DNA from: Flavobacteriales bacterium
GTDB taxonomy: Bacteria > Bacteroidota > Bacteroidia > Flavobacteriales_F > PHOS-HE28
DNA: 64,000 bases
Direction of reading: 5' to 3'
Assembly: GCA_039931265.1 (NCBI GenBank)
Contig: JBDTSG010000013.1
Location: 14,711 to 78,710 of the forward strand
Shown: positions 4,857-27,504 of the stretch, in pieces
Layout: every line of letters starts with the position of its first letter
Position numbering within the stretch: position 1 is the stretch's first letter
Notes under the pieces: generated by a model
Told to the model about the DNA's origin: nothing
Databases searched by the model: none
What the model saw: only the letters and a program-made list of their open reading frames with translations
Translations under genes and position numbers: made by a program

Positions 4857-4886
4857 GATGAACAACCTTGGCGGGTCGCTCTCGTC
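4857..4886 (+). promoter_or_regulatory. conserved upstream motif GATGAACAACCTTGGCG with ECF-like AAC-N16-CGTC geometry, 50 nt before the paralog 1 ATG
   Basis: The 17-mer recurs at 7394..7410 (GATGAGCAACCTTGGCG) at a near-identical distance from the paralog 2 ATG. The two copies are in different reading frames relative to their downstream genes, so the motif is non-coding. In this copy AAC at 4864-4866 is followed by a 16-nt spacer and CGTC at 4883-4886. Confidence 0.35.
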
Positions 4887-4906
4887 TACGCTACAGATCG
4901 CCCTCA

Positions 4907-7381: not shown

Positions 7382-7393
7382 TCCAGACCTTGT

Positions 7394-7410
7394 GATGAGC
7401 AACCTTGGCG
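7394..7410 (+). promoter_or_regulatory. second copy of the conserved upstream 17-mer (GATGAGCAACCTTGGCG), 52 nt before the paralog 2 ATG
   Basis: 16 of 17 identical to 4857..4873. The -10-like CGTC is not conserved here. Confidence 0.3.
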
Positions 7411-7445
7411 CACTGTCGCGATCCGCTCAACCCAACACCTCCAAT

Positions 7446-9905
7446 ATGAAACGTTTGATCGTGCTGTTGCCTTGGTTGATCGGTGTGAACATGAATGCGC
7501 AGCTCGGTCCTGAGCACCGCTTCGTTTATCCCGGCGATGCTTGGGCCCTGGCGATCGCCGACGTGGACAATGATGGTGATGGTGACATCGTACGTTCAAC
7601 AACGGGTCCATTGGTCGTCCATGCGCAGGTGGCACCGAACACGTACAGTGTCATCTATGAACTGGGGATGGCCGGGATCGCTGATCGGGTGAGGTTCGCG
7701 GATCTGGACGGCGATGGCATCGAGGACATCGTCTTATCTCGACGAACTGCAAGTGCGGTTGCTTGGGTGCGCGTGCTTGGTGGAGGGAATTTCGGCGTAC
7801 TGGAGAACCTTGTGGCAGGCATTCCTCAAGCGTTCGATGTTCAGATTGAGGACGTGGATGGCGACGGCGATCCGGACCTGGTGTTCGCATACGCGATGTT
7901 GGACGCCACATTGGCGTGGGCACCGAACTTGGGTGGCGGGGTGTTCGGCGCGACGCAGGTCATCGTTGCGACGTCTTTTTCCGTCGACCCGCAACTGGGC
8001 AGTTTTTTCGATAGCGGTGATATCGACCAGGATGGTGATATCGACTTCATGACCAGGACGGCCAATGCCCTGAAATGGTGGGAGAACGACGGCGTCGGCG
8101 GGTTCTCATTGGTGAGCATACCGGGAAGCTCGGGTGTTTATGATGTTCAACTGGCGGATATCGACGGGGACCTTGCGCCTGACATCCTCTTCAGCAGATC
8201 GAACGATCTCTGGAAGTGCGTGAACAACGGGTCGGGCGGATTCGCACCAGAAGAGGCATTGATGCAGTACACCACGAACTTGAAGAATCGCATGGAGGCC
8301 TTGGACCTTGATGGCGATGGAGACGAGGATGTGGCGTACCGGAGGGGAGGCGGCATCGGCATTTCGCACGTGATGGGCGGGTCGATCAACGATGGCATCG
8401 GGAATTTCAGTCAAGTTGGCAGCGCATTGCCGGGGGACTTTCCGCAACCCTTCGCGTACGGGGATCTCAACGGTGCACCGCCGCTCGATCTGGTCGGTTA
8501 TGCGAACGACGGGCTGTACGTCGCTCCTTTTCCGCAGCGTTTGAATTCCGTGACGGGGGCGGTCCATGTTTCCATCTCCGACTTTGATCTCGATGGTGAC
8601 AATGACGTAGTGCTTTCCGGCCAAAACTGGTTCAGTCCGCTCGCCGAGGGACTACGACCGCTCCAACTGGCTCTTCACTCCAATGATGGGGCCGGGGTGA
8701 TGCTGCAGTCGCCCGAAGAACTTTGGGTATCTGCGGCAAGCATTGCCAGGGCCGACGCGAAGGACCTGGACGGTGATGGTGACGATGATCTCGTGGCACT
8801 ATGGCAGGAACCACAGGCCGGTACCATGAAACAGTTCATGGTATTGGAGAACCAGAACGGCGTATTCGATTCCATCGGTGCTATCGGTCCCCAGTGGTTT
8901 CCATGGATCCCCGAAGATCCGTTCCAACCCGTGCTGCGCGACATCGACGGAGATACGGATATCGACCTGATGCGGCACATTTCATCCGGGTTGTACCGGA
9001 GCGCGAACAATGGCAGTGCGGTGTTCGGTCCAGAGCAGGAGTTCGATCCAGGAGGCATGTGGATCCTTAGCGCCGCAACGCTTTGCGATGTGGACAACAG
9101 CAGTTTGCCCGACTATGTGTGGAGCCATGGGAACTTCGGCGGTGCCGGACCCGATTCGATCTTCTGGAACGAGAACCTCGGCCTTGGTGTTCCGGGCCCT
9201 AACCAATTCGTGGCGATCTCCCCTGTGCTGACCTTCGCCAACGTCCCGATCCACAGCCAGGTGCTTTCGGGAACGGATCTGAACAGCGATGGGCTCGAAG
9301 ACCTGCTGATCTTCAATGGTGATTCGTTGGGCGTTATGTACAACACCGGGGGTGTCCTTAACCCTGCCCAAGAGTGGGCGTGCAACGCGATCGCCTATGC
9401 CGTGGGCGATATGGACGGGAACGGCTATGTGGATATCGTAACGCTGAGCCCGAATGCCGACATTATCGCATACCTCAACAACGGACTTGTTTTCGGCGTG
9501 GGCCAATTGATGGCGGCTGCACCGCAGAGCACCGGCACCAGCCACCTCGCTCTTGCTGATATGGATGGCGATCTCGACCTGGACGTGATCACTTGCGCGG
9601 TGAACGGCAGTGCTGCGTGGCTTGGCAACACCGGGAATTTCCCGTTGGGAATTTCAGAGACACGCGTGCATGAAACGGTTCACATGTACCCGAACCCGAG
9701 CAGCAGTGGGTTCACCGTGCATGCTTTATGGGCGATCCAAAGCGTGCAGTTGCTCGACGTGCGCGGCCATGTTCTCTGGAGCATCCCCGGCAATGGCACC
9801 AACGAACTACGCATCGAACGCGGCGACTTGTCGGCGGGCTTGTATGTCGTGCGGGCAGTGCAGAGCACCGGTGCTGTTGCAACAAGCCGGGTGGTGGTGG
9901 GGTGA
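7446..9905 (+). CDS. FG-GAP repeat protein with T9SS type A C-terminal sorting domain, paralog 2
   Basis: Signal peptide MKRLIVLLPWLIGVNMNAQ at the ATG 7446; the track start at 7392 is a GTG. It has the same architecture as 4907..7381. The central ~776 bp are identical to paralog 1 and the C-terminal domain is VHMYPNPSSSGFTVHA... Confidence 0.8.
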   Translation: MKRLIVLLPWLIGVNMNAQLGPEHRFVYPGDAWALAIADVDNDGDGDIVRSTTGPLVVHAQVAPNTYSVIYELGMAGIADRVRFADLDGDGIEDIVLSRRTASAVAWVRVLGGGNFGVLENLVAGIPQAFDVQIEDVDGDGDPDLVFAYAMLDATLAWAPNLGGGVFGATQVIVATSFSVDPQLGSFFDSGDIDQDGDIDFMTRTANALKWWENDGVGGFSLVSIPGSSGVYDVQLADIDGDLAPDILFSRSNDLWKCVNNGSGGFAPEEALMQYTTNLKNRMEALDLDGDGDEDVAYRRGGGIGISHVMGGSINDGIGNFSQVGSALPGDFPQPFAYGDLNGAPPLDLVGYANDGLYVAPFPQRLNSVTGAVHVSISDFDLDGDNDVVLSGQNWFSPLAEGLRPLQLALHSNDGAGVMLQSPEELWVSAASIARADAKDLDGDGDDDLVALWQEPQAGTMKQFMVLENQNGVFDSIGAIGPQWFPWIPEDPFQPVLRDIDGDTDIDLMRHISSGLYRSANNGSAVFGPEQEFDPGGMWILSAATLCDVDNSSLPDYVWSHGNFGGAGPDSIFWNENLGLGVPGPNQFVAISPVLTFANVPIHSQVLSGTDLNSDGLEDLLIFNGDSLGVMYNTGGVLNPAQEWACNAIAYAVGDMDGNGYVDIVTLSPNADIIAYLNNGLVFGVGQLMAAAPQSTGTSHLALADMDGDLDLDVITCAVNGSAAWLGNTGNFPLGISETRVHETVHMYPNPSSSGFTVHALWAIQSVQLLDVRGHVLWSIPGNGTNELRIERGDLSAGLYVVRAVQSTGAVATSRVVVG
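8796..9571. repeat. second copy of the ~776-bp identical tract (see 6272..7047)
   Basis: As for 6272..7047. Confidence 0.85.
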
Positions 9906-9977
9906 CTGCGCTGCGGAGTGCAAGCAGTAGCTGGCCTCACCGGTTACTTTCCGCCCCCGACCTGTCGGGATCTACAC

Positions 9978-11501
9978 ATGTGGCTTTTGCGGTTGCGCTG
10001 GTCTGGGTGGCTTTGGTTGCTTGTGATCGCCAACGCGGCTTGTCCGCTTTTCTTCCGCTGCTTCATTACGTTGGATGGACCTGTGCATGTGTTGCATGCG
10101 GCGCTGCTCGGGGACGCGATCGGGGAAAGAACGTATGTCGCCCATGGCTTGCAATATGATCTGGGCCGTATTGATATCGGGCTGCTTGATCCAGTGGCCA
10201 TACTGCTGTTGAAGCTGTTGGCACCCGAACTTGTCGAGACGTTCTTGGGGGTGATCGTCCTGCTGATGTTTGGTGCAGGTGCGATCGCCTATGTGCGGGC
10301 ATATGCGGGTGAACGCCGGATGCTCGTTGTGTTGGCCCTTCCGCTCTCGTTCAGCGTGTTGCTCCTCCTCGGCCTGTTCCCCTTCGTTTTCTCCATTGGC
10401 CTCTGCCTTTGGTTGGCGGCGCGATGGGTGCGCATCTCGGAGGTGACCTTCCGGGTTCTGTGTCGCTCACTGCTCGCCATACTGCTCTGCGCCGCCGTGC
10501 ATCGGGGCGCACCCGTCTTGCTGGGTGTTTTCGTCGCTGTGCATGAAGTTTTGTTCTTCGCGGGGGATCGCGCGAAGTTCCAAGCTCGTTGGTCCGGCAT
10601 ACCACGCAAGTTGGCACGAGCGGTGCTTTCGTTGGGCGGGTTTGCGCTGGTGGCAACTGCCGTCCACTTCCTGTTTTTGCGCGGAGTGCTGGAAGCCGCA
10701 GCGGAACGCACACCGCTCGATGACCTGCTGCATGTGCGTCCGTTGCTGTTGCTGGATCACGTTGCTGAGCGGCCGCTGTGCATGGCGTTTGCCGCGTTGC
10801 TTTTGGTCTCGATGGGAACCGCGTTCCTGCATTTGCGCGTATGGCGCGTGCCGATCGTACACCATGCCCCGCTCTGCATTGGCTTGTTGTTCATCTTCTC
10901 ATCCCTATGTATCCGCACCGAGTGGGCCGACTTGCACTACTTCGGTGAGCGGGCGCAATTGCTAGGCCTACTGATGGCAGGGCTGTGGACCGCGGTGATC
11001 GTTCCCAACAACCGCTACGCGCAAGCTCTGGCTTTGGTCGTGGTCATTTTCCATGTGGTGCGTTCGGTCTACGTGGAACGCCGTATGGCTCAGTTTGCGG
11101 ATGAACGTGCGGCCGTGGTGGAAGTCGCGCGGCACTTGAAGCCCGGGGCATTGGTCGCCACGGTGCATTGCACCGATGATTGGCTGTTGCTGCATCAGTT
11201 CGCGCACCTCGCCACGCGGCACAAGGGTATCGTTCTCAGCAAGCGCGACAAGGTGTGGTTCGAGCGGAACAGCCCTGTGGCAATTGCGCTGCACCGTGCG
11301 ATCAATGGAAAGGAAGAGCGGTGGGAGTGGTTCGGGAGATGTGGGAGGGATCCCCTGTGTCCGCAGGTCGATCACGTTATCCTGATCGGCGATGAGCACG
11401 TTGATCAAGCCGCTAATTCAGATGCGTTGCGTGAAGTGCTGGTGCACGACTATGTGCCCGTGTACAACTCCGTCAGTGCTCAGATATGGGACCGACGTTG
11501 A
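9978..11501 (+). CDS. hypothetical polytopic membrane protein with ~180-aa C-terminal soluble domain
   Basis: ATG at 9978 (MWLLRLRWSGWLWLLVIANAA). There are at least 10 hydrophobic helices and I recognise no family motif. It sits directly downstream of the FG-GAP pair on the same strand. Confidence 0.45.
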   Translation: MWLLRLRWSGWLWLLVIANAACPLFFRCFITLDGPVHVLHAALLGDAIGERTYVAHGLQYDLGRIDIGLLDPVAILLLKLLAPELVETFLGVIVLLMFGAGAIAYVRAYAGERRMLVVLALPLSFSVLLLLGLFPFVFSIGLCLWLAARWVRISEVTFRVLCRSLLAILLCAAVHRGAPVLLGVFVAVHEVLFFAGDRAKFQARWSGIPRKLARAVLSLGGFALVATAVHFLFLRGVLEAAAERTPLDDLLHVRPLLLLDHVAERPLCMAFAALLLVSMGTAFLHLRVWRVPIVHHAPLCIGLLFIFSSLCIRTEWADLHYFGERAQLLGLLMAGLWTAVIVPNNRYAQALALVVVIFHVVRSVYVERRMAQFADERAAVVEVARHLKPGALVATVHCTDDWLLLHQFAHLATRHKGIVLSKRDKVWFERNSPVAIALHRAINGKEERWEWFGRCGRDPLCPQVDHVILIGDEHVDQAANSDALREVLVHDYVPVYNSVSAQIWDRR

Positions 11502-11510
11502 CCGGATCGC

Positions 11511-13298
11511 TCAATCCAACTTCAACACCGCCAAGAACGCCTGCTGCGGGATCTCCACTGAGCCCACTGATCGCATGCGCTTCTTCCCTTCCTTCTGCTT
11601 CTCCAGCAGTTTACGTTTACGGCTGATGTCGCCGCCGTAGCACTTGGCGGTAACGTCTTTGCGCAGGGCCTTCACAGTTTCGCGCGCTACGATCTTGGCG
11701 CCGATGGCCGCTTGGATAGGGATGTCGAATTGTTGGCGGGGCAGGAGTTCTTTCAGCTTGCTGCACATCTTCTTGCCCAACTCGTGCGCGTGGTCGCGGT
11801 GGATCAGCGCGCTCAGTGCGTCCACCTGTTCGCTGTTCAGCAGGATGTCCAGCTTGATCAGGTCGCTCTCCTTGAAACCGATCGGGTGGTAATCGAACGA
11901 CGCGTAGCCCCGCGAGATCGATTTCAGCTTGTCGAAGAAATCGAACACCACTTCGCCCAGCGGCAGTTCGAAGGAGAGTTCCACGCGATCGGTGGTGAGG
12001 TAGTTCTGGCCGATCAGCATGCCGCGCTTCTCGATGCACAAGGTCATGATCGCACCGGTGTACTCGCTCTTGGTGATCACCTGCGCTTTGATGTAGGGCT
12101 CCTCGATCTTCTCGATGTGCATTACCTCCGGCAGTTCGCTGGGGTTGTGCACGTTCACCACATCGCCGTTGGTCTTGGTAACGATGTAGCCCACGTTCGG
12201 CACAGTGGTGATCACCGTCATGTTGAACTCGCGTTCAAGCCGCTCTTGGATGATCTCCATGTGCAACAGTCCGAGGAAGCCACAACGGAATCCGAAACCG
12301 AGTGCTGCGCTGCTTTCGGGTGTCCATGTGAGGCTCGCGTCGTTCAACTTCAGCTTCTCCATGGCGTCGCGCAGCTCTTCGTACTCGTCGGTGTCCACGG
12401 GGAAGATGCCCGCCCATACCATCGGCTTCACATCCTCGAACCCCTTGATGGCTTCAAGACACGGGCGCTCTTGGTGGGTGATCGTGTCGCCCACCTTCAC
12501 TTCACTGGCGGTCTTGATGCCGCTGATGATGTAGCCCACATCGCCGGCGAGCACTTCATCGCGTGCGCGCAGGTCCATCTTCAGGATGCCCACCTCATCC
12601 GCGCCGTAAGTGACACCGGTGTTGAAGAACTTCACCTTGTCGTTCTTGCGAAGCGTGCCGTTGATCACCCTGAAATAGGCGATGATGCCACGGAAGCTGT
12701 TGAAGACACTATCGAAGATCAATGCCTGAAGTGGCGCCTTGGGATCGCCCTTGGGCGCGGGAACACGCGCCACCACAGCCTCCAGGATCTTGTCCACCCC
12801 GAGCCCGGTTTTCCCACTGGCCGGAAGGATCTCCTCCCGATCGCAGCCTATGAGATCCACGATCTGGTCCTTCACCTCTTCGGGGTTTGCCGATGGCAGG
12901 TCCATCTTGTTCAGGACCGGGATGATCGTGAGATCATGATCCAGCGCGAGGTACAGATTGCTGATGGTTTGCGCTTGGATGCCTTGTGTCGCGTCCACGA
13001 TCAAAAGGGCCCCTTCGCAAGCGGCGATGCTCCGGCTCACTTCGTAGCTGAAGTCCACGTGGCCGGGCGTGTCGATGAGGTTGAGGATGTACTTCTTCCC
13101 GTTCAAGGAGTAGTCCATCTGGATCGCCTTGCTCTTGATCGTGATCCCGCGCTCACGCTCCAAGTCCATATCGTCCAAGGCTTGGGCCTGCATGTCGCGG
13201 TCAGCGATCGTGCCGGTCATCTGCAGTAGCCGGTCAGCCAAGGTGCTTTTACCGTGGTCGATGTGGGCGATGATGCAGAAGTTCCGGATGTGATCCAT
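11511..13298 (-). CDS. lepA: elongation factor 4 (LepA)
   Basis: [26 protein letters not shown]1 motif, [13 protein letters not shown]. 595 aa. The C-terminal LepA domain is present. Confidence 0.95.
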
Positions 13299-13452
13299 GG
13301 CTGACGGTCAGGGAGAAAGCCCCGAAAAGGGGGCGCGAAAGTAGGCCAATTGCCACGGCAGTCGCGGTGGCCGTAGCTTCGAGAGGCGGGAAGCCCGCTG
13401 GGGTAGGCAACTTTCCGCCCCAAGCCTGCATCATAGACCCCGGAACAGCGCC

Positions 13453-14013
13453 ATGACGGACGAAAGAATGGTTGAAGGGTGCCGCCGGAACGAAGCGGCG
13501 GCGCAGAAAGCGCTGTACCAAGCTTACTCCAGGAAGATGATGGCCGTGTGCCTCCGATATGCCCATAGTCGCGACCAAGCGAAAGACATCCTGCAGGACG
13601 GGTTCGTGAAGGTGTTCCAGAAAATGGACCTGTACCGTGGGGATGGTCCTTTGGGCGGATGGATCGCTCGCACCATGGTGAATACTGCATTGGACCACCT
13701 TCGTCGCAACAAGCCCTTCGATCACAGCATCGACCTGGCCGACGCCGAGCACCTGCACAGTGAGGATGCCCATGTGGTGAGCAGCATGAGCACCGAGGAG
13801 TTGATGGGCTTGGTGCAAAGCCTGCCCCCCGGCTATAAGGTCGTCTTCAACATGTTTGCCATCGAAGGGTACTCGCACAAGGAGATCGCCGATCAGTTGG
13901 GCGTTAGCGAGAACACCAGCAAAAGCCAATTCATGAAAGCGCGGGCCTACCTGCGCAAGCTGCTTCCGAAAGAAGCCGCAGCACCATACGTACATGATGA
14001 ACAAGAAGGATGA
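13453..14013 (+). CDS. RNA polymerase ECF-type sigma-70 factor
   Basis: 186 aa. Region 2, YSRKMMAVCLRYAHSRDQAKDILQDGFVKVFQ. Region 4 helix-turn-helix, YSHKEIADQLGVSENTSKSQFMKARAYLRK. Confidence 0.85.
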   Translation: MTDERMVEGCRRNEAAAQKALYQAYSRKMMAVCLRYAHSRDQAKDILQDGFVKVFQKMDLYRGDGPLGGWIARTMVNTALDHLRRNKPFDHSIDLADAEHLHSEDAHVVSSMSTEELMGLVQSLPPGYKVVFNMFAIEGYSHKEIADQLGVSENTSKSQFMKARAYLRKLLPKEAAAPYVHDEQEG

Positions 14014-15049
14014 ACTGATCGACCTGCTCCGCGATCGCCTCGGCGATCTGGAAGCACCCGTGGACCCCGCCTTATGGCAGGGTATCCAAGGCCGCATGGT
14101 CGAAGCTGCCGTTGCCAGCGGGACCGACCCGGTAACGGAACTGTTCCGCAATGGATTGCAGAACGCGGAAGTGCCCATTGATCCGGGCGTATGGACGAAC
14201 ATCAGCAGCCAATTGGGCCATGGCGTTGCCGCAACCGGCGGAAGCCTTACGGCTTGGATCGGTGGTGGTATCGCCGCAGCCTTGGTGGCCGGTGGTCTGT
14301 GGTTGGGTTTGGGCGGTAGCGACGAAGTACCGGCCAAGGTGGCTGCCACCGTGACCGTTGTTCCGGGGGTGGTACAAGAGGTACCGACTGTTGAAACACC
14401 GGTGGTGACGGTGCCTTCCTCCGAGGCAGTGAAGGAAGAAGTGGCGATCGGGAATGAGCAACATGCTGTTGCCGCTCCATTAAGTGTCCGGGTTGATCCT
14501 CAAGAACGGAACGACAGCGAGAACGCTGATGATGTGAAGCCCGTTCCCGTCAATACGTTGCCGGCAGTGGCAACGGAAACGAAGTCCGAGGTACCCGGTC
14601 CCTTCATCGACAAGGTGAATGCGATCATTGAACGGGCCGAGGAGCGCATTGCTGCGGACCCGCATCCTGCCGAACAGGGGGATACCCGGATCCCACCATC
14701 GGAGAATCCCGAGACGGAAGCTGCTGAAGAGGCGGACCAGGAGACGGCCACGAATGCGGTAACCGAAAGCACCCACCTTTTCATTCCCAACGTGTTCACT
14801 CCCAATGAGGATGGTGTTAACGACGTGCTGGAAGTGAGCGCTATCGGCCTGTCCAACATCGCTGTTAGCATTTACAGCGCAACGAACGACAAGCTGGTTT
14901 TCCGGGCGGACAACCTCAGCCCGTGGGATGGGCGCGACGCCAGTGGCGCGCGCTGTGCGGAGGGGTACTACTTTTATGCGATTGAAGCCATCGGGCCTGA
15001 TGGCAAAGCCATGAGCAAAGGGCAAGTGGTACTGTTGAACATCCGCTGA
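13994..15049 (+). CDS. anti-sigma-like single-pass membrane protein with C-terminal gliding-motility/CHU_C (T9SS type B) domain
   Basis: Start overlaps the sigma stop by 20 bp. The N-terminal ~85 aa carry a duplicated (L/A)E(A/V)P(V/I)DP(A/G)(L/V)Wxx I motif. A single TM (TAWIGGGIAAALVAGGLWLGLGG) is followed by an acidic, proline-rich linker. The C-terminus is LFIPNVFTPNEDGVNDVLEV...WDGR...GYYFYAI, a CHU_C signature. Confidence 0.6.
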   Translation: MMNKKDELIDLLRDRLGDLEAPVDPALWQGIQGRMVEAAVASGTDPVTELFRNGLQNAEVPIDPGVWTNISSQLGHGVAATGGSLTAWIGGGIAAALVAGGLWLGLGGSDEVPAKVAATVTVVPGVVQEVPTVETPVVTVPSSEAVKEEVAIGNEQHAVAAPLSVRVDPQERNDSENADDVKPVPVNTLPAVATETKSEVPGPFIDKVNAIIERAEERIAADPHPAEQGDTRIPPSENPETEAAEEADQETATNAVTESTHLFIPNVFTPNEDGVNDVLEVSAIGLSNIAVSIYSATNDKLVFRADNLSPWDGRDASGARCAEGYYFYAIEAIGPDGKAMSKGQVVLLNIR

Positions 15050-15065
15050 CCAACGCCCCACCAAC

Positions 15066-18038
15066 ATGAAACAAGCATTGCGTATCGTCGGTTGCGTGAT
15101 CGCGGTGGCCCTTGGGTCGCGGATCGTGTCGCTGGGTCAACGGCAAGTGCTTGCTGGGAGCGATCACGCTGCGCTGAAGGCCGCTGGGCTCTTGAACGGA
15201 CGTGCTGATTTCAGCGTGTTGCCAGCACCGGCCGTTGGGAACAATGGTGCCGCAGGTCGTCTTGTTCCATCAACTCCGCCGGGCAATATGAAGGGTTCCG
15301 GCGCCGGTTGCGATTGTTGGATCGATCCCGATGCCTCCTACACTTTGGCAATGCTCCCGAACGATGATGGCAGCAGCTCCCAGATCCCCTTCCCCTTCTC
15401 CTTCGATCTCTACGGCGATCTTTATTCCGCATTGTGGATCAACAACAACGGCAATGTCACTTTCGATAACTCGTTCGGCGGTTTCACGTCTTCGGGTTTC
15501 CCCATGCAGCCGTACCCGATGGTGGCGCCTTTCTGGGCCGATGTGGATACGCGGCCTGTTGCAGGTGGTGAGGTCTGGTACAAGGTGACCCCCACGGCGG
15601 TTTTCGTGAACTGGGTGAACGTGGGTTACTACAGTATGATGACCGACAAGCTGAACAGCTTCCAGCTCATCCTCACCAACGGCAACGACCCGGTGATCGG
15701 TATCGGAAAGAACGTCAGTTTCTGCTATAAGGAAATGGAGTGGACCACTGGCGCGGCCTCGGGTGGTAATCTTGGTTTCGGTGGAACCGCAGCCAACGTG
15801 GGCGCCAATCGCGGCAACGGAACGGACTACCTTCAGTTCACCCGCCCTGACCAACCCGGTGCATTCTATGATGGTCCGTTCTTGTTGAATGATGGTATCG
15901 ACTGGCTCGATTTCAAACAATTCGTCTTCACCACGTCGGTCTTCACGAGCAATATCCCCCCGATCGGAAGCGGCACTACCCTTTGCGATACGGTTACCAC
16001 CTGCGTTGGTCAAACAGCTCAATTGGACATGACCTTCCTGTCGCCAGAACCGAACCAGATCACAACCGGGTTCAGTACAGCGCTCACGCTGAGCAATTAC
16101 GCGGAGATCATGAACACCAGTGGAGGGAACTCGATCCAGATCATCGGCGAGTTCACACCGACCCCGCTGGAGATCGGCTTCCATACCGTCACGTTCGAAG
16201 CCACGGACAATGGGGCACCACCGCTAACCGCCACTTACAACTTGGTAGTGCAGGTGTTGCCGGTGGGCATCACCATTGCGCCGACGGCCCTCAGCACTTG
16301 CACGGCCGCACCGCCGATCGACCTCTTCCTCCTGTTCAGTGGCAACCCACCGCTGGGTGGCGTTTGGCAGGACCCTAACGGTAACCCGTTCAGTGGAACG
16401 CTGGATCCCGCTGTGGATATCAGCGGCGATTATGCCTACATCCTCGGGAATGGTTCACCATGCCCAACCGTGGGGATCGTAACGGTCACCATCTCCACAA
16501 CACCCGATCCCGGTACACCGGGCTCGGGAACGTATTGCGCGGATAACGCCGTCGTGAACTTGTTCACTTTGCTCGGGGGTACGCCACAAGGAGGTGGCAC
16601 ATGGACCGACCCGAACAGCGCGCCCCATACCGCGATGATGGATCCAGCGATCGATCCATCAGGCATCTACACCTACACGATCAACGGGATCTTGCCCTGC
16701 CCAACGGCCAGCACCACCGTTACCATCACGATCAACCAACCTGTTGATGCCGGACAGGATGCGATGCTCGCGCTGTGCCGTGCCGATGCACCGATCGACC
16801 TGCTGACAGCATTGGGTGGTACGCCCGATGCCGGGGGCACTTGGGTGGATCCCAACCTCACAGCCTTCACGAACCCCTTGGATCCGGCTGTCGCTCTTCC
16901 CGGCATCTACACCTACACGATGGTCGGAGCAGCGCCTTGCCCGACCGAGTCGGCGAACGTTACGGTAGGCTTCGACCCGGTGCCCAACGCGGGTATCGAT
17001 GCAGTCTTCGATATCTGTTCCGACGGAAGTCCGACCGTGCTCTTTACGCTCTTGGGCGGCACGCCGGATCCCGGTGGCGCGTGGCTCAACCCCGCTATGG
17101 CAGCGCACACTGGAACGTTGATGCCCGCGACGGACCAGAACGGCGTGTACAAGTACGTGGCATACGGGGTGGGTTCATGCAGCGCCCTGACCGATACCGC
17201 CGATGTGGACGTGCTCATCAACTTATTGCCTGTTGTTCAGTTCAGTGGGGTGCCGATGGCGGGTTGTGCGCCGTTGAACGTGATGTTCACCAACTCCACC
17301 GACCCGGTATTCAACGCGAGTGCCGCTTGGGACATGGGTGATGGTGGAACCGGAAGCAACCTCACATTGCAGCCGTACACGTACAATACCCCAGGCATGT
17401 GGACCGTGAGCCTCACCGTTACCAGCGACAGCGGCTGTGTGGGCAACCTCACGTACAACGACATGATCCTTGTGGAGCCCGCACCACTGGCGGAATTCAT
17501 CGCTTACCCGAACCCGGCCACCGTGCAGAACAGTGCGGTGCTGCTGACCAGTACCGATCCGTATGCCGTCAACTTCGATTGGACCATCACCGTCCAGGAA
17601 ACCGGGGAAGTGCTCGGAACGAGCCAAGCACCCGAACTGCTTTTCGAATTCCCGAACACATTAGGGGGCTTGTACGACGTATGCCTCGCCGTGCAGGACA
17701 TCTACGGCTGTACCGACACGTTGTGCAAGGTGATAGACATCCGTGATCCGTTGCTGGTTTATGTGCCCAACACCTTCACCCCCGATGGCGATGGTATCAA
17801 CGACACATGGCTGCCCAGCGTAATGGGCAACGATCCCGGACAGCATGAACTGCTGGTCTTCGATCGGTGGGGCGGCATCGTTTTCCAAAGCAATGATCAA
17901 CACCAGGCTTGGGACGGAAAGCACCGCAATGGAGGCGAAGTGCTGGCCCAAGGCCTCTACACTTGGAAGCTGAAGGTCGCCCCGGAGAACGAAGGGGCCC
18001 GGAAAGAGTACATCGGGCACGTGACATTGATCAAGTGA
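15066..18038 (+). CDS. large secreted adhesin-like protein: NIDO-like N-domain, Ig-like domain, ~6 LGGTPxxGGxWxDPN repeats, PKD-like domains, T9SS type B (CHU_C) C-terminal domain
   Basis: Signal peptide MKQALRIVGCVIAVALG. N-domain WINNNGNVTFDNSFGGF...VAPFWADVDTRP. PKD-like SLTVTSDSGC. C-terminus YVPNTFTPDGDGINDTWLP...VFDRWGGIVFQS...WDGK. 16-bp gap from the upstream gene. Confidence 0.8.
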   Translation: MKQALRIVGCVIAVALGSRIVSLGQRQVLAGSDHAALKAAGLLNGRADFSVLPAPAVGNNGAAGRLVPSTPPGNMKGSGAGCDCWIDPDASYTLAMLPNDDGSSSQIPFPFSFDLYGDLYSALWINNNGNVTFDNSFGGFTSSGFPMQPYPMVAPFWADVDTRPVAGGEVWYKVTPTAVFVNWVNVGYYSMMTDKLNSFQLILTNGNDPVIGIGKNVSFCYKEMEWTTGAASGGNLGFGGTAANVGANRGNGTDYLQFTRPDQPGAFYDGPFLLNDGIDWLDFKQFVFTTSVFTSNIPPIGSGTTLCDTVTTCVGQTAQLDMTFLSPEPNQITTGFSTALTLSNYAEIMNTSGGNSIQIIGEFTPTPLEIGFHTVTFEATDNGAPPLTATYNLVVQVLPVGITIAPTALSTCTAAPPIDLFLLFSGNPPLGGVWQDPNGNPFSGTLDPAVDISGDYAYILGNGSPCPTVGIVTVTISTTPDPGTPGSGTYCADNAVVNLFTLLGGTPQGGGTWTDPNSAPHTAMMDPAIDPSGIYTYTINGILPCPTASTTVTITINQPVDAGQDAMLALCRADAPIDLLTALGGTPDAGGTWVDPNLTAFTNPLDPAVALPGIYTYTMVGAAPCPTESANVTVGFDPVPNAGIDAVFDICSDGSPTVLFTLLGGTPDPGGAWLNPAMAAHTGTLMPATDQNGVYKYVAYGVGSCSALTDTADVDVLINLLPVVQFSGVPMAGCAPLNVMFTNSTDPVFNASAAWDMGDGGTGSNLTLQPYTYNTPGMWTVSLTVTSDSGCVGNLTYNDMILVEPAPLAEFIAYPNPATVQNSAVLLTSTDPYAVNFDWTITVQETGEVLGTSQAPELLFEFPNTLGGLYDVCLAVQDIYGCTDTLCKVIDIRDPLLVYVPNTFTPDGDGINDTWLPSVMGNDPGQHELLVFDRWGGIVFQSNDQHQAWDGKHRNGGEVLAQGLYTWKLKVAPENEGARKEYIGHVTLIK

Positions 18039-18066
18039 CGGCTTTCAGACAGAGCACCGAAACAAC

Positions 18067-20175
18067 ATGAGCATTTCATTGAGGCCCCTTTCCTGGGTTG
18101 TAGCACTGTTGCCGATCACGCTGATCGCACAAACGATCGAGCTGCCCGAAGGCCAGTATGATCTGAGTAAAGCGGCAGGCACGCTTCCTCAGGGAAACGT
18201 GCGGCCCATCGCCCGTCAGCAACTCCCACTAGCACCGGTGATGCCCGCTGGCACTGCGAAGGGCGGTGGCAACTTCTCCTGCGATTGCTGGATACAGCCC
18301 GACGCGAACTACACCTTGGCGATGACCCCCAATGACGATAACTCCAGCGGGCTGATCACTATTCCTTTCCAGTTCAACCTGTACGGCACCAACTACAGCA
18401 ACCTCTACATCAACAACAACGGGAACATCTCGTTCGATGCACCCTATGGCACCTTCACGGCCGATCCTTTCCCGACCGCTGGTTTCGTAATGGTGGCACC
18501 CTTCTGGGCGGATATCGATACGCGCGGCGATGATGGTCTTGGATTGAACGGTGGAACGGTGAAGTACAAGGTGACACCGACGGCCTTGTATGTGAACTGG
18601 GATGATTGCGGATACTTCAGCCAATACACCGACAAGAAGGTCTTCATTCAACTCATCATCACCGATGGAAACGACCCCATTCTCGGTGCTGGGAACAACG
18701 TGAGCTTCTGTTACAAGGAGATGGATTGGACCACCGGTGATGCAAGTGGTGGCTCCGGTGGTTTCGGTGGTTTCCCTGCGGTTGTAGGGGCGAACCTTGG
18801 CAACGGGGTGGACTTCATCCAGTTCGGAACGTTCGACCAGCCGGGCACTGCCTACGATGGCCCTTTCGGGAACGTGGATGGCGTTGATTGGCTTGATTAC
18901 AAGCATTTCGTTTTCAGTACGGTGACCTCCACCCAGAACGTCGCGCCTATCGCCAGCAGTTCCTTCTTGTGCGACACCATCGTGGTCTGCGCGGGTCAGC
19001 TCACGCAGATCCAAATGGATTTCATCGCACCGGAAACCGGTCAGATCACTACGGCCACCTCAATCGCACCCACGCTGAGCACGTACGTAGAAACAAGTAA
19101 TACATCGGGCATCACGGCCACGATCCTCAGCGAGTTCAATCCTACCGCAGGTGAAGTCGGCTTCCATACCATCACGTTCTCGGGAACGGACAACGGTGTG
19201 CCTCCTCTTACAAGCACGGTGTATATCGTGGTGGAAGTGGTGCCCAGCCCCGGTGCGCCGCCCACGATAAGCGGCGACGACTTGATCTGTGCTGGTGAGT
19301 TCAGCACCTTGACGGCGAGCGGCGGTTTCGCCAGCTACAATTGGAGCAACGGGGACAACGGACAGAGCGTTGATGTGGGTGGAGGGACATACACGGTAAC
19401 GGGCGTGTTGGGCAATTGCCCGCTTACCAGCGCACCGTTCATCGTAACGGAGAACCCGCAACCACAGCCTGTTATTTCCGGTGTGCTCTTCAATTGCGGT
19501 GGCGAGCCTGCCACGTTGGGCACCACACAGCCGTTCACCGACTACACATGGAGCAACGGCAGCACCGACCCAACCATCACCGTAGGCACCGGGACTTACT
19601 CCGTTACCGTTACCGATGCGAACGGATGCACTGGAACTTCGGGCGCGGTGAACGTGCTGAGCGCACCGGCTCCCACGGCAGGGTTCAGCGCCGACCCACC
19701 GTCACCAGCGCCTCCGGGTACCACCGTTCAGTTCACCGATCAGAGTCTTGCGAATGGTGCCAACATCGTTGGCTGGTCATGGGATTTCGGCGATAACAGC
19801 ACCAGTGCGGAACAGAACCCGACCAACACGTTCAACTTCCCGGGCAACTATGATGTGACCCTTACGGTGACCACTTCGGATGGCTGTACGGACACGTACA
19901 CGTTCATCTACAACATCCTGCCGGTGGACATCATCATCCCGAACGTGTTCAGCCCCAACAGCGATGGGTTGAACGACAACCTCGAATTCTCGGGGCTCCA
20001 GTTCTACAGCAACTCGAACCTGAAGGTCTATAGCCGCTGGGGGAACAAGGTGTATGAAAGTGCCAACTACAGGAACAACTGGAACGGCAAGGACACCAGC
20101 GAGGGCACGTACTTCTACATCTTGAAGATGGCCGATGGCCGTGAGTACGTTGGGCATGTAACCTTGCTGCGGTAA
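18067..20175 (+). CDS. adhesin-like paralog: NIDO-like N-domain, Ig-like domain, two SprB repeats, PKD domain, T9SS type B (CHU_C) C-terminal domain
   Basis: Signal peptide MSISLRPLSWVVALLPITLIAQ. N-domain YINNNGNISFDAPYGTF...VAPFWADIDTRGDDG. SprB-like repeats (ICAGEFSTLTASGG...YNWSNG...GTYTVT...GNC and GTYSVTVTDANGCTG). PKD (WDFGDNSTS...YDVTLTVTTSDGCTD). C-terminus IIPNVFSPNSDGLNDNLEF...VYSRWGNKVYES...WNGK. Confidence 0.8.
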   Translation: MSISLRPLSWVVALLPITLIAQTIELPEGQYDLSKAAGTLPQGNVRPIARQQLPLAPVMPAGTAKGGGNFSCDCWIQPDANYTLAMTPNDDNSSGLITIPFQFNLYGTNYSNLYINNNGNISFDAPYGTFTADPFPTAGFVMVAPFWADIDTRGDDGLGLNGGTVKYKVTPTALYVNWDDCGYFSQYTDKKVFIQLIITDGNDPILGAGNNVSFCYKEMDWTTGDASGGSGGFGGFPAVVGANLGNGVDFIQFGTFDQPGTAYDGPFGNVDGVDWLDYKHFVFSTVTSTQNVAPIASSSFLCDTIVVCAGQLTQIQMDFIAPETGQITTATSIAPTLSTYVETSNTSGITATILSEFNPTAGEVGFHTITFSGTDNGVPPLTSTVYIVVEVVPSPGAPPTISGDDLICAGEFSTLTASGGFASYNWSNGDNGQSVDVGGGTYTVTGVLGNCPLTSAPFIVTENPQPQPVISGVLFNCGGEPATLGTTQPFTDYTWSNGSTDPTITVGTGTYSVTVTDANGCTGTSGAVNVLSAPAPTAGFSADPPSPAPPGTTVQFTDQSLANGANIVGWSWDFGDNSTSAEQNPTNTFNFPGNYDVTLTVTTSDGCTDTYTFIYNILPVDIIIPNVFSPNSDGLNDNLEFSGLQFYSNSNLKVYSRWGNKVYESANYRNNWNGKDTSEGTYFYILKMADGREYVGHVTLLR

Positions 20176-20244: not shown

Positions 20245-21198
20245 ATGAAAGTCATCGACCATCTGCGTGCGGCTGAAGGCACGTTGCTCTCCTTCGAGAT
20301 CCTCCCACCGCTGAAAGGCCGGGATATCCGCAGCATTTACGAGGGCATCGACCCGCTGATGGACTTCAAGCCCAGTTTCATCAATGTCACCTATCACCGT
20401 GAAGAGGTGATCTATAAGGAGCGTGGGCATGGCCTGCTGCAGAAGATCCGCCTGCGCAAGCGGCCCGGAACCGTCGGCATTTGCGCCATGATCAAGGCGA
20501 AGTACAACGTTGACAGCGTGCCGCATTTGATCTGCGGTGGTTTCAGCAAAGAGGACACCGAGGATGCGCTGATCGAGCTCAATTTCCTGGGGATCGACAA
20601 TGTGCTGGCCTTGCGTGGGGATGCCGTCAAGAGCGAACCGCACTTCATACCCGAACGCGACGGCCACGCACATGCTGTTGAGCTGATCGAGCAGATCAAT
20701 GGCTTGAACAAAGGGAAGTACATGTACGAGGAGGAACAGGAAGCGGCGCCCACGGACCTATGTGTTGGCGCGGCGTGCTACCCGGAAAAGCACCCGGAGG
20801 CGCTGAACATGAGCACGGACATGGCCTACCTGAAGAAGAAGGTGGATGCGGGTGCGGAGTACTTGGTCACACAGATGTTCTTCGACAACCGCAAGTACTT
20901 CTCCTTCGTTGCCGAGTGCCGTGCCAACGGCATCAACGTGCCGATCATCCCCGGCCTCAAGCCCATCACCAACCTCAAGCAGACCAAGTTCCTGCCCAAG
21001 ACTTTCCACATCGACCTGCCCGTGGAATACACCGATGCGCTGGAGCGTTGCAAGGATGATGAAGCCGTGAAGCAGATGGGCATCGCATGGGGCGTTCAGC
21101 AAGCCAAGGAACTGAAAGCCGCGGGAGCACCTTGCCTGCATTTCTATACCATGGGTCGCAGCGAAGCGGTGCGCGCCATCGTGGAGCAGGTGTTCTGA
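20245..21198 (+). CDS. metF: methylenetetrahydrofolate reductase
   Basis: LSFEILPPLKGRDIRSIYEGIDPL...FINVTYH N-terminal signature, FLGIDNVLALRGD. 317 aa. AAGGAG lies 8 nt upstream of the ATG. Confidence 0.85.
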   Translation: MKVIDHLRAAEGTLLSFEILPPLKGRDIRSIYEGIDPLMDFKPSFINVTYHREEVIYKERGHGLLQKIRLRKRPGTVGICAMIKAKYNVDSVPHLICGGFSKEDTEDALIELNFLGIDNVLALRGDAVKSEPHFIPERDGHAHAVELIEQINGLNKGKYMYEEEQEAAPTDLCVGAACYPEKHPEALNMSTDMAYLKKKVDAGAEYLVTQMFFDNRKYFSFVAECRANGINVPIIPGLKPITNLKQTKFLPKTFHIDLPVEYTDALERCKDDEAVKQMGIAWGVQQAKELKAAGAPCLHFYTMGRSEAVRAIVEQVF

Positions 21199-24732: not shown

Positions 24733-25422
24733 ATGAAATGCGGAGTAGTCACTTTCCCGGGTTCGAATTGCGATGAGGACATGGTGCATGTGCTTGAGGC
24801 CCTAACTGGCAAGCCCGTTGAGCGGCTCTGGCACAAGGAGCACGATCTGCGCAACTGCGAGCTGATCGTATTGCCCGGGGGATTCAGTTACGGTGACTAC
24901 TTGCGCAGCGGCGCCATCGCGCGTTTCTCCCCCATCATGCAGGAGGTGGCCGCGCATGCGAAAGTGGGGGGGCTTGTCTTCGGCGTATGCAACGGTTTCC
25001 AAGTGTTGTGCGAAGCCGGGCTTCTGCCCGGTGCACTGCTCCACAACAGCGGACAGCAGTTCGTTTGCCGCAATGTTTTCATCAAGCCCCAAACAAAGGA
25101 CAGCGCCATAACCGGTGCGTTGAAGGGCAATGCCCTGCGCATTCCGATTGCTCATGGCGAAGGCCGCTACCATGCCAGCGCAGAAGTGCTGAAGGGATTG
25201 AACGGGGAGCAGCAAGTGCTCTTCCGCTATTGCAATGCCGTGGGCAACATCACCCCGGATGCCAACCCCAACGGAAGTGCGGAGAGCATCGCTGGTGTGT
25301 GCAACACCGGCCGCAATGTGTTCGGTATGATGCCGCACCCCGAGCGCGCCACCGATCCACGCTTAGGGAACACCGATGGCAAGGCGATCTTCACCGGACT
25401 CTTGCAAACGGTGGTGGCTTGA
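24733..25422 (+). CDS. purQ: phosphoribosylformylglycinamidine synthase subunit PurQ (glutaminase)
   Basis: ATG at 24733 (MKCGVVTFPGSNCDEDM). GFSYGDY, catalytic GVCNGFQVL, and HPER near the C-terminus. 229 aa. Confidence 0.85.
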   Translation: MKCGVVTFPGSNCDEDMVHVLEALTGKPVERLWHKEHDLRNCELIVLPGGFSYGDYLRSGAIARFSPIMQEVAAHAKVGGLVFGVCNGFQVLCEAGLLPGALLHNSGQQFVCRNVFIKPQTKDSAITGALKGNALRIPIAHGEGRYHASAEVLKGLNGEQQVLFRYCNAVGNITPDANPNGSAESIAGVCNTGRNVFGMMPHPERATDPRLGNTDGKAIFTGLLQTVVA

Positions 25423-27504
25423 TGTCCCCGTTCGGCGGAACACGGCGGTGAGTTTGTGGGTTTTGCGCGGGTCGATGGTGATCACGTCGCTCCCCTCCAA
25501 CTGTTTCCACCCTGCGAACTCAAACCCTTCGGCGGCCACGGCCTTCAGCCGCAGCGGCACTCCGCTGAAGGCGGTGAGCCGCGCAGGCAGCGCGGGCAAC
25601 GGCAAGTCCTCCACCTCCACGTGTCCGCCACTGCGCGGGTCCGCCGCTACGGTGATCGTGCGCAGGCCCAGGCCGGTGCGTTCGGAAAGTTGCTCAAAGA
25701 CATGCGGGCCACGTTGCTCGAAGAAGTCGAACAGCGCATCGCGGGCCTCGGCTGGTGCGGGCATCTCCATCTCCCCGCTCCAGCGTGAATGGTCGCGCAC
25801 AAGTGCGTCGGCATGCACGCGGTAGAGGCTGTCGACCGCTGCGCGGGCGGATCCGTTGGCCAGGACGGTGGCAAGTAAAGCGCTCATGCGCGCCAGCAGG
25901 CGATCGCGCATCGTGGGCGCGTGCAGCAACTGTGGCAGGTAAGGAGCCACGGGTGCGGCTTCGGCGCACATGCGCGCCAGGCTGTTGTCATCAGCAGGTG
26001 CCCAAAGGTCCATGTCGTAGAGGACCCAACGCCACTTTCCATCGGGCACCTTCGGCCGCCAACAGCGCACGTTCAGGTCGTGGTCGGCGCGACCGGTCCA
26101 GAGATCGAAACATGCGAGGTCAATGAGGCTGGGCACATCGATGAGCGTTTCCAACGTGTCCAGTTGTGCGCCATCAAGCAGTGCTTCATAGGCCGCGTGG
26201 AAATGCTTACGGTCGCCATCCACTTTGCGCAGCGATGGACCGTGCAGGACATCGAGTGCTTCGTAGTGGTGGACGGTACACAACCAATCTTCGTCCTTCG
26301 GCGGCATCCAACGGTACAGGCCACGGTAGTCACCATCCAGATACAATTCCACCGGTAGCGAGGCCTGCACATCCACGTGGCTGCCGGTCGCCTTCACAAC
26401 GCATTCCATGAAGCGGTTCCGCAGGAACGCGTGCGGCGTGGCATCAGCTCTCAGGATGGCTTCATTGCCTTCGTCCAAGCCAGGCCAGGGCAACTTGCCA
26501 TGCCCGCGTGCTTCCAGTTTCAAATTGCGTTTCGGGAAGCTGCGCGATCCACTGCCGCTTTCGCGTAATCGCACTTCGCAGATACCCGGAGCGCTGAACC
26601 CGAACAGCTCCACCGTACCATCGGAAGAGGCCTTGTCCCTGCCATCCGGCGGTGATCCGCTCACCGCAACCCACGGGGTGCTCAATAACGTGGTGATGTA
26701 CGTTCCTGTGAACGTAGTGCTCGGCAATGCGCCTTCGGCGAACGAGCGCGCCCTGATCACCGTATTGTCTTCAATGGCGATCGGTGCGGTGTAGTTGAAC
26801 CCGTTCTGCTCCGTTGGCTCGGAGCCATCGCGTATGAAGCGCACCGAAGTGCCTTTGCCGTTGCCCATTTCGATCAGCGATCCCTTGGCAACGATCCCGC
26901 CAGGTGGTTGCGCCTGCGGTGGTGCGCTTACGGCGCGCAAGGTTGGCTCCGGAGCGTTCCGGATGCCGAAGCTTGGAGAGGAGAAGAAGCTCCACCCGGT
27001 GCCACCGTCGGGCTGCCGCCCAATGGACACCCCAGCAGGCATGGCGGGCCAAGTGAAGAGGTCCAGGATCGATGAACCATCGGCGGAGATCAGGAGGAGG
27101 GTGCCACCGGTACTCGGGAGTCCGAAACCGATGTGTGGTGGATCCGCGTCCGCTGCCTTTCCGAAGACAATTACGGAGCGTTCGTTGGCCCCCAGGATCA
27201 CATGTTGTTCCAGTGTGGCGGTCCGTTCATTCAGGCTGAAGCGAAGGCCGGAAAGATCCGCAGGGCGTTCGCCCGTATTGAGCAGCTCAACACGATCGGG
27301 GCCTTCGCCCGCACATTGCAGCTCGTTGATCACTACGCGTTGGGCGCTGCCCGCCAAGGCGGAAGTCAGCGCAACAGCAAGCGGAATGCAACGGACGATG
27401 TTCACCGGCCCAAAGTAGCGGGTGGCAGCACCACGGGCCCTCCTACATTTGGGCGCCCCGCCGTTTGGCGGACAACGAAACCGTTCCACCATGATACGAT
27501 CCAT
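25363..27504 (-). CDS. CotH-kinase-family protein with N-terminal lamin-tail domain (LTD)
   Basis: LTD signature VVINELQCAG...ELLN...DLSG. CotH region LPVELYLDGDYRGLYRWMPPKDEDWL...WRWVLYDMDLW. Candidate starts are the ATGs at 27504 and 27492 or the GTG at 27405. The two ATG choices overlap the 5' end of the divergent gene at 27491, so the GTG at 27405 is plausible. Confidence 0.65.
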   Translation of the reverse strand: MDRIMVERFRCPPNGGAPKCRRARGAATRYFGPVNIVRCIPLAVALTSALAGSAQRVVINELQCAGEGPDRVELLNTGERPADLSGLRFSLNERTATLEQHVILGANERSVIVFGKAADADPPHIGFGLPSTGGTLLLISADGSSILDLFTWPAMPAGVSIGRQPDGGTGWSFFSSPSFGIRNAPEPTLRAVSAPPQAQPPGGIVAKGSLIEMGNGKGTSVRFIRDGSEPTEQNGFNYTAPIAIEDNTVIRARSFAEGALPSTTFTGTYITTLLSTPWVAVSGSPPDGRDKASSDGTVELFGFSAPGICEVRLRESGSGSRSFPKRNLKLEARGHGKLPWPGLDEGNEAILRADATPHAFLRNRFMECVVKATGSHVDVQASLPVELYLDGDYRGLYRWMPPKDEDWLCTVHHYEALDVLHGPSLRKVDGDRKHFHAAYEALLDGAQLDTLETLIDVPSLIDLACFDLWTGRADHDLNVRCWRPKVPDGKWRWVLYDMDLWAPADDNSLARMCAEAAPVAPYLPQLLHAPTMRDRLLARMSALLATVLANGSARAAVDSLYRVHADALVRDHSRWSGEMEMPAPAEARDALFDFFEQRGPHVFEQLSERTGLGLRTITVAADPRSGGHVEVEDLPLPALPARLTAFSGVPLRLKAVAAEGFEFAGWKQLEGSDVITIDPRKTHKLTAVFRRTGTSSHHRLQESGEDRLAIGVP

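Follow-up and report, generated by a model that had tools for sequence, protein, structure and literature searches.

An ECF sigma operon with two type B cargo genes

The 64,000-nucleotide stretch analysed here (the window) comes from contig JBDTSG010000013.1 of a Flavobacteriales bacterium and carries a four-gene operon on its forward strand. The operon encodes an extracytoplasmic function (ECF) sigma factor; a predicted single-pass membrane protein, referred to below as protein 2, which ends in a CHU_C domain resembling the type B sorting domains of the T9SS (type IX secretion system); and two T9SS cargo proteins, A and B. Its promoter and genes are as follows:

13407..13434, + strand, ECF-type promoter, -35 element GCAACTTT, -10 core ATCAT within GCATCAT
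13453..14013, + strand, ECF (group 4) sigma-70 factor, 186 amino acids
13994..15049, + strand, protein 2, 351 amino acids, 20-bp overlap with the sigma gene
15066..18038, + strand, cargo A, 990 amino acids, 16-bp gap after protein 2
18067..20175, + strand, cargo B, 702 amino acids, 28-bp gap after cargo A

The gene coordinates, the overlap and the two gaps given in an initial annotation of this DNA were all reproduced; the overlap would be 17 bp if the second ATG (13997) of protein 2 were the start. The product of the first gene matched Sigma70_r2 (PF04542; E 2.4e-15, 56.5 bits) and Sigma70_r4_2 (PF08281; E 2.1e-15, 56.6 bits), and scored 90.8 bits with TIGR02937, above the cutoff of 42.9. All three models bear out the earlier assignment to the ECF sigma factors, and a protein of this length with sigma-2 and sigma-4 domains only falls within the definition of group 4. 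It is 70-88% identical to its orthologues, 46-53% identical to the corresponding sigma factors of Crocinitomicaceae, and 45% identical to the partner of P0188, a protein of Dma architecture that is described below.

The promoter ends 18 nt from the sigma ATG, and its ATCAT core begins 18 nt after GCAAC. Within 200 bp upstream, the sigma genes compared share a -35 consensus, GGCAAC(C/T)TT. The -10 core, located 18 nt after GCAAC, is ATCAT (within CGCATCAT) in the window's clade and GTCT in Crocinitomicaceae, and a Chitinophagales locus has the same -35 element and spacing with ATCC at -10 (TTGCAACCTTTT...ATCC, in front of the P0188 partner sigma gene). Searching with the pattern GCAAC[CT][TA]T-N10-13-G.ATCAT revealed one match in the 64-kb window and one per orthologous locus, always just 5' of the sigma gene, and none in 1.07 Mb of unrelated Bacteroidota loci. 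A regulon probe, GGCAACYTTN{11,13}ATCGCATCAT, applied to a metagenome collection gave 42 matches, 0 of them upstream of sigma/anti-sigma genes; they were judged to be due to chance and added no members to the regulon. ECF promoters are usually of the GAAC/CGT type. The GCAAC/GTC elements resemble them, and the promoter is therefore most simply read as autoregulated. No convincing intrinsic terminator or sigma-70 promoter was found on the + strand inside the operon. Given this and the short intergenic gaps, the genes of cargo A and B are most likely transcribed from the ECF-type promoter upstream of the sigma gene. When scanned for Rfam families and tRNAs, the window gave no matches.

Both cargo proteins have textbook signal peptides. 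In cargo A, the signal peptide is followed by a NIDO domain (E 2.5e-22), Ig-like (immunoglobulin-like) repeats, a PKD domain (PKD_4, E 1.9e-12) and a C-terminal domain (CTD) of type B (CHU_C, E 7.4e-17), which passes TIGR04131 with 49.6 bits. Cargo B consists of a signal peptide, NIDO (E 4.9e-16), PKD (PKD_4, E 1.3e-16) and a type B CTD (CHU_C, E 4.6e-22; TIGR04131 passed with 48.9 bits). The two proteins are 52% identical over their first ~400 amino acids (E 9e-117), in agreement with their earlier description as paralogous type B cargo. That no PorP/SprF gene adjoins the operon had also been pointed out, correctly: such a gene was absent from the sigma operon at every locus read, and only one (54484-55590; TIGR03519, 193 bits) was present among the window open reading frames (ORFs) scanned. 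A canonical type B cargo gene at 51014-54487, with which it overlaps by 4 bp, encodes a product of 1157 amino acids that contains CUB, SprB repeat and CHU_C domains. The arrangement of the pair at 51014-55590 is a textbook one and, within the window itself, serves as the control for calling the sigma-operon CTDs orphans. Orphan type B CTDs are served by a common SprF-like shuttle that is not linked to them (Fjoh_1677), as in the case of three Flavobacterium johnsoniae substrates (PMC12618676).

Architecture of protein 2

Four parts can be distinguished in protein 2, as listed below:

13994..14245, + strand, residues 1-84, putative cytoplasmic sigma-binding domain, two helix-loop-helix repeats
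14246..14317, + strand, residues 85-108, predicted single transmembrane helix, G/A-rich (Kyte-Doolittle)
14318..14779, + strand, residues 109-262, acidic disordered tether, P/A/E/T/V-rich
14780..15049, + strand, residues 263-351 and stop codon, CHU_C / type B-like T9SS CTD of a diverged subtype

The N-terminal domain is built from two copies of a unit of ~35 amino acids, DELIDLLRDRLGDLEAPVDPALWQGIQGRM followed by TELFRNGLQNAEVPIDPGVWTNISSQL, with the consensus LRDRLxxxExPVDPxxWxxIxxxL. The duplicated (E)xPxDPxxWxxI motif, noticed in the initial annotation, is indeed present twice, at residues 20-31 (EAPVDPALWQGI) and 59-70 (EVPIDPGVWTNI), and its key residues are among the positions (R15, V23, W28, D63, P64, W67, Q73 and L74) that are invariant in 19 homologues, down to ~30% identity. 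An AlphaFold2 (AF2) model contains four helices, predicted with low confidence. For the N-terminal module (residues 1-112), no match was obtained in Pfam or NCBIfam at E values up to 10, and none in the PDB; family models of classical anti-sigma domains (zf-HC2/ASD, RskA, FecR, DUF4179 and others) did not match the N-terminal region.

The sole hydrophobic segment of the protein lies at approximately residues 85-108, where the best 19-residue Kyte-Doolittle window scores 1.68. The position of this predicted helix is kept across the families of sigma-linked relatives introduced below, in which the median score is 1.76-2.13. The tether that follows has a net charge of -21; these features fit the earlier description as a single-pass membrane protein with an acidic linker. 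The predicted local distance difference test (pLDDT) score in the AF2 model is <50 over most of residues 109-255, except for a helix at residues 205-221 (~72). This helix (nt 14606-14656, FIDKVNAIIERAEERIA, consensus GxxxVxxIxxxL) is amphipathic, conserved and located ~40 residues N-terminal to the CTD; it may be where a protease cuts or a partner binds, or it may belong to the extended region reportedly needed for secretion of type B CTDs. Tethers of the window's family have a median length of 163 amino acids (interquartile range (IQR) 157-171, n=140) and sequences that are not conserved. In the Crocinitomicaceae family the median is 142 amino acids (IQR 129-153, n=82), and the tethers of both families are acidic and P/A/E/T-rich.

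CHU_C (PF13585) is the only Pfam domain matched by protein 2 (residues 263-345; 47.4 bits versus a gathering score of 27). Residues P265, F268, P270, D273, N276, W311, G313 and Y326 are invariant, and the CTDs of sigma-linked proteins retain the PNxF(T/S)PNxDGxND, WDG and GxYxY elements. Judged by its sequence, the domain is a diverged CHU_C subfamily. AF2 models it as an Ig-like beta-sandwich with a pLDDT of 94-97. A PDB fold search with this model yielded generic Ig-like sandwiches only, including the C-terminal domain of PorU; a type B CTD structure was not among the matches listed.

Recurrence of the pair and its link to Dma proteins

Pairs of a sigma gene and a gene for a CHU_C protein of this kind recur in two lineages of Flavobacteriales, where they account for >200 protein clusters. 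With protein 2 as the query, 79 clusters were obtained, ~75 of which were full-length (335-398 amino acids); all of them contained PF13585, and those with a named organism all came from Flavobacteriales metagenome-assembled genomes (MAGs). A profile search of genome contigs with the full-length alignment returned mostly generic CHU_C proteins, together with three full-length relatives (L007-L009); the remainder was reused as a background set. Eight loci of the window's clade were read, i.e., the window itself, L001, L003/L004, L005, L006, L007, L008 and L009. At each of the seven further loci, the sigma gene overlaps the gene of the CHU_C protein, 1-3 type B cargo genes follow, and metF comes next. 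The operon in the window is flanked as follows:

11511-13298, opposite strand, lepA, upstream of the sigma operon
20245-21198, metF, downstream of cargo B

The number of cargo genes varies, from three paralogues in L008 (9078-16712) to one in L009 (7986-11240). In L005, the first cargo protein is devoid of NIDO and retains the type B CTD. An ORF of 1084 amino acids in L009, apparently fusing the anti-sigma and cargo proteins, was rejected as a frameshift artefact of a MAG assembly based on Oxford Nanopore Technologies reads. L004 (7888-9327) and L006 (7876-9339) contain, between lepA and the sigma promoter, an extra gene whose product combines NIDO with a type A CTD (Por_Secre_tail), so that NIDO proteins with CTDs of both types cluster at this locus.

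A second and larger family was found with the N-terminal profile in Crocinitomicaceae/Fluviicola. Its members (280-316 amino acids) consist of one repeat, a transmembrane helix, a linker and a CHU_C domain, and their genes overlap a sigma gene at 3/3 loci read (L087-L089). The genes recur in hundreds of Flavobacteriales genomes, those of a cultivable genus, Fluviicola, among them. Overlap with the sigma gene was observed at 11/11 CHU_C-type loci (eight from the window's clade and three of the Crocinitomicaceae/Fluviicola type), and at 12/12 loci from two orders when the Dma-type locus L090 is counted. An adjacent sigma gene was found at 0/77 loci of ordinary CHU_C proteins, two of which had a sigma-like ORF elsewhere in the flank. 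At no CHU_C-type locus read was the sigma factor paired with a different protein, a pairing that the initial annotation had named as one that would speak against its proposal. A gene for an AhpC-TSA/redoxin protein of 400-440 amino acids lies beside the sigma gene in L087 (6131-7363), L088 (6163-7377), L089 (6133-7383) and L090 (3905-5233). It recalls the EcfO/Reo system of Bacteroides fragilis, which is reportedly linked to oxidative stress.

When a profile of residues 1-112 was compared with 1.84 billion representative proteins, 675 matches were obtained at E <= 1e-3, and some of these had other C-termini: PKD domains followed by CHU_C (P0189, P0208) or an OMP_b-brl_2 beta-barrel (P0188, E 4.7e-16; P0193, E 4.2e-13). 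The CTD of P0208, which follows PKD domains, exceeds the TIGR04131 cutoff with 38.6 bits, and a PKD-containing variant is encoded next to a sigma gene in L089. Among sigma-linked proteins, the number of repeat copies ranges from 1 to at least 9 (P0215, P0186, P0049 and P0189; the window has two copies, at 13994-14245). Iterated repeats may possibly bind several sigma molecules or touch sigma-2 and sigma-4 separately.

P0188, from a Chitinophagales MAG (L090), connects protein 2 with a class of anti-sigma factors that is known experimentally. Its gene overlaps an ECF sigma gene whose product is the 45% identical sigma factor mentioned above and whose promoter has the same layout, and the protein has the Dma architecture: N-terminal repeat, transmembrane helix, disordered linker and OMP_b-brl_2 beta-barrel. 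In Bacteroides thetaiotaomicron, residues 1-40 of Dma1 pull down the sigma factor Das1 in vitro (PMC10927553). Dma1 spans both membranes by means of a disordered tether and has its C-terminus in the outer membrane; its deletion derepresses the regulon (PMC10927553; PMC13088901). Dma proteins are encoded next to sigma factors of the ECF21 family (PMC10927553; PMC13088901). The window sigma factor may belong there too, as its 45% identity to the P0188 partner and their common promoter layout suggest indirectly. The plan of Dma1/Reo (an ECF sigma operon, a short N-terminal cytoplasmic sigma-binding region, one transmembrane helix, a long disordered periplasmic tether and an outer-membrane C-terminal module) is one that protein 2 probably follows; it shares an operon with an ECF sigma gene and has a single predicted helix followed by a long disordered region. 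Two differences stand out: the eight-stranded OMP_b-brl_2 barrel of Dma proteins is replaced by a CHU_C beta-sandwich, and the Dma operon contains NigD-type genes, whereas that of the window contains T9SS cargo genes. Because of the former, protein 2 is not a Dma protein in the strict sense. It is best read as a Dma-like anti-sigma factor in which a T9SS type B-like domain takes the place of the barrel, the link being made through architecture and Dma-architecture homologues rather than through direct alignment with Dma1/Reo. A tether of fixed length and free sequence, as found in both CHU_C families, is what one would expect if, as in Dma proteins, the CTD has to extend to the outer membrane.

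Since the sigma overlap is seen at 11/11 CHU_C-type loci, and since the repeat also occurs in a Dma-architecture protein beside a related sigma factor, we take it as very probable that the sigma factor has its cognate anti-sigma factor in protein 2, as had been proposed from the motif. We infer an N-in/C-out topology from the conserved hydrophilic N-terminal domain without a preceding signal peptide, from the need to meet a cytoplasmic sigma factor, and from the Dma1 precedent. The initial annotation had considered that a corrected start might yield a cleavable signal peptide. This is excluded, as the N-terminal domain of 84 amino acids is conserved as protein and there is no K or R between approximately residue 53 and the helix, i.e., no basic n-region.

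The window as a whole is ordinary chromosomal DNA with a GC content of ~59%, which also contains dnaG, leuS, rlmN and ispG, and the region is rich in T9SS cargo. Upstream of the operon are tandem genes for FG-GAP repeat proteins of 837 amino acids with type A CTDs (Por_Secre_tail; 4868-7381 and 7392-9905), and a further protein with a type A CTD is encoded at 62122-63738, near the window end. Between the FG-GAP cargo genes and lepA lies a gene (9918-11501) for an apparently polytopic membrane protein of 527 amino acids that had no Pfam match. A protein of 733 amino acids encoded at 25363-27564 (- strand) contains CotH kinase-like, Fn3-associated and CHB_HEX_C domains. Over the last 2 kb of the window (62001-64000), GC content falls from ~0.60 to 0.52.

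Proposed coupling to the T9SS, alternatives and significance

We consider the sigma/anti-sigma assignment, along with the structure of the operon, to be highly likely. For the locus as a whole, we lean, if only slightly, towards an autoregulated ECF sigma/anti-sigma operon with two orphan type B proteins, in which an anti-sigma factor of the Dma/Reo plan docks its CTD on the T9SS. The mechanism would be as follows. By homology with the Dma class, the N-terminal repeat domain would sequester the sigma factor in the cytoplasm, with one transmembrane helix anchoring protein 2 in the inner membrane and the acidic disordered tether of ~150 amino acids crossing the periplasm. The diverged type B CTD would dock on the T9SS translocon or on a PorP/SprF-type shuttle which, for this orphan operon, would be encoded elsewhere; from the sequence features at hand, the chances that such physical engagement takes place appear evenly balanced. 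The state of docking would then decide whether the tether is cleaved or protein 2 otherwise inactivated, and the freed sigma factor would use the GCAAC...ATCAT promoter to transcribe the operon that encodes it. As for the direction of the signal, we tentatively suggest a checkpoint, a version that we regard as rather doubtful, in which a competent and free T9SS would grip and pull the CTD as a tethered pseudo-substrate, the tether would be cleaved or the protein extracted, and cargo would be made once the sigma factor is free.

The reading offered in the initial annotation, in which the T9SS engages the periplasmic CTD and secretion status is thereby coupled to sigma release, is supported in part. 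Several observations weigh against engagement of the T9SS. The C-terminus of protein 2 had initially been taken for a type B sorting signal. Its CHU_C identity holds, given the PF13585 score, but with TIGR04131 the domain reached only 27.6 bits, below the cutoff of 35. The score is low because a turn of the (R/Q/H)(W/Y/F)G type, typically RWG, is missing. This turn was present in 57/57 ordinary CHU_C domains of the background set and in all operon cargo proteins; it is absent from the protein 2 CTD, and in the two sigma-linked families no more than 6/72 and 8/82 members have it. Secretion of the SprB CTD depends on each of five conserved motifs (PMC12618676, Paillat et al. 2025), of which RWG is, by our inference, 'motif B'; with this motif missing, the protein 2 CTD may not be a competent signal. 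The possibility that this CTD mimics those of the operon cargo was also considered and rejected, as its identity to them (31-44%, versus 28% to the unrelated CTD of the cargo at 51014) gives no sign of specific mimicry. The triplet of sigma factor, CTD-bearing anti-sigma factor and cargo suggested in the initial annotation recurs at 8/8 loci of the window's clade, but in L087-L089 the pair stands alone with no linked cargo. Finally, a positive-inside check of 282 family members, in which the N-flank was nearly free of charged residues and K+R averaged 0.15 there versus 0.6-2.0 in the net acidic C-flank, does not settle the topology.

The divergence of the CTD, its lack of special similarity to the operon cargo CTDs and the generic beta-sandwiches found in the fold search would be accommodated by an alternative in which protein 2 is an anti-sigma factor whose CHU_C-like domain was recruited as a periplasmic Ig-like sensor or interaction domain that makes no contact with the T9SS. 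The tether and the cargo genes would then be incidental and the signal a different one, such as the envelope or redox stress suggested for EcfO/Reo; the Crocinitomicaceae pairs, which lie without cargo beside an AhpC/redoxin gene, as does the Dma-type L090, also favour such a sensor. It is at odds with the other hallmark CHU_C residues, which are invariant over deep divergence, and with the tether, since 140-160 amino acids of conserved length are not needed by a sensor confined to the inner membrane. Siblings that combine PKD domains with a CTD exceeding the TIGR04131 cutoff, beta-barrel siblings showing that this class of anti-sigma factors is built to reach the outer membrane, and the linkage of type B cargo to the pair at all eight loci read in the window's clade further speak against it, and we regard this sensor as possible though on the unlikely side. 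A more radical alternative, that protein 2 is a membrane-anchored, co-transcribed protein whose repeats have another purpose, with the sigma factor regulated in some other way, could account for the lack of matches to described anti-sigma domains in Pfam, NCBIfam and PDB, for the low-confidence model of the N-terminal domain, and for a repeat number (1 to at least 9) that is unusual for a 1:1 sigma binder. It is improbable in view of the gene overlap at all 12 loci from two orders, the status of the repeat as the sole element common to all sigma-linked architectures, and the experimentally demonstrated binding and inhibition of a sigma factor by a protein of the same architecture class (PMC10927553). 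Protein 2 might also be taken for ordinary T9SS cargo with a mis-called start, its hydrophobic segment, which is G/A-rich and only moderately hydrophobic, being a cleavable signal peptide. This we consider extremely improbable, as the preceding 84 residues are conserved with invariant positions in >140 representatives, the stretch before the helix lacks the basic residues of a signal peptide (whereas cargo A and B have textbook ones), and protein 2 contains just a disordered linker instead of a passenger domain.

The proposed Dma-like, T9SS-docking anti-sigma factor can be compared with several known systems. Like T9SS type B cargo (SprB/SprF; PMC12618676, PMC9143113), protein 2 has a C-terminal PF13585 domain with PNxFTPNxDGxND, WDG, GxYxY and terminal motifs, and it resembles orphan members of this group. 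It differs from them in being anchored, as predicted, in the inner membrane and in having neither a passenger domain nor the RWG-type motif, with the low TIGR04131 score already noted; of the features that define type B substrates, it lacks the cleavable Sec signal peptide, the complete set of CTD motifs, and a downstream PorP/SprF gene, the last of which is common but not obligatory. FecR is an inner-membrane anti-sigma factor whose periplasmic C-terminus relays the state of an outer-membrane barrel to an ECF sigma factor. Our proposal is similar to FecR/FecA signalling (also treated in PMC10927553) in that an inner-membrane anti-sigma factor would contact, through its periplasmic C-terminus, an outer-membrane beta-barrel and relay to an ECF sigma factor. 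Unlike that system, protein 2 has no FecR domain and no TonB-dependent transducer, and the proposed outer-membrane partner is a T9SS component. In the PorA-PorXY-SigP pathway of Porphyromonas gingivalis (PMC7712824, PMC12152298), a protein with a T9SS CTD likewise informs an ECF sigma pathway about the secretion system. PorA, however, is a genuinely secreted protein with a type A CTD and acts through a two-component system, not an anti-sigma factor. FlgM/sigma-28 is the checkpoint of flagellar type III secretion. The likeness here is in logic only: the sigma factor restrained by FlgM controls late substrates of the apparatus for which this anti-sigma factor bears a secretion signal, but FlgM is soluble, fully exported, unrelated in sequence and served by a different secretion system, and export of protein 2 is hypothetical.

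ECF sigma/anti-sigma pairs, the Dma scaffold and the type B CTD are each known already, and the system is therefore not categorically new; what is new is the combination of a Dma-like anti-sigma scaffold with a T9SS type B-like CTD. Full-text literature searches (anti-sigma with T9SS, CTD, CHU_C and ECF) returned no described anti-sigma factor with a T9SS sorting domain, consistent with the statement made at the outset that none was known. How Bacteroidota adjust the output of T9SS substrates to what the secretion machine can handle is poorly understood. The inputs described so far, namely PorXY-SigP-PorA and an ECF regulon of F. psychrophilum that includes T9SS genes (PMC9723704), involve no anti-sigma factor bearing a sorting domain. 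The locus described here, with four genes and one promoter, is a compact and testable circuit which extends the recently discovered Dma class, and as the pair is widespread (>200 clusters) and directly testable, it should be of interest to T9SS and ECF specialists.

That the same repeat and tether are joined either to a beta-barrel or to a T9SS domain suggests a general design for reaching the outer membrane, and suggests that the N-terminal repeat may be a sigma-binding module that had no name before. Should the CTD prove not to undergo secretion, the family would still illustrate, in nature, a type B CTD fold that has taken on the role of a periplasmic sensor. If the checkpoint version is confirmed, the Dma-type scaffold would reach the outer membrane by two routes, the beta-barrel assembly machinery (BAM) or the T9SS, and the operon would give the T9SS its first secretion checkpoint in the manner of FlgM, through which the orphan type B surface proteins would be made only when the secretion system can take them.

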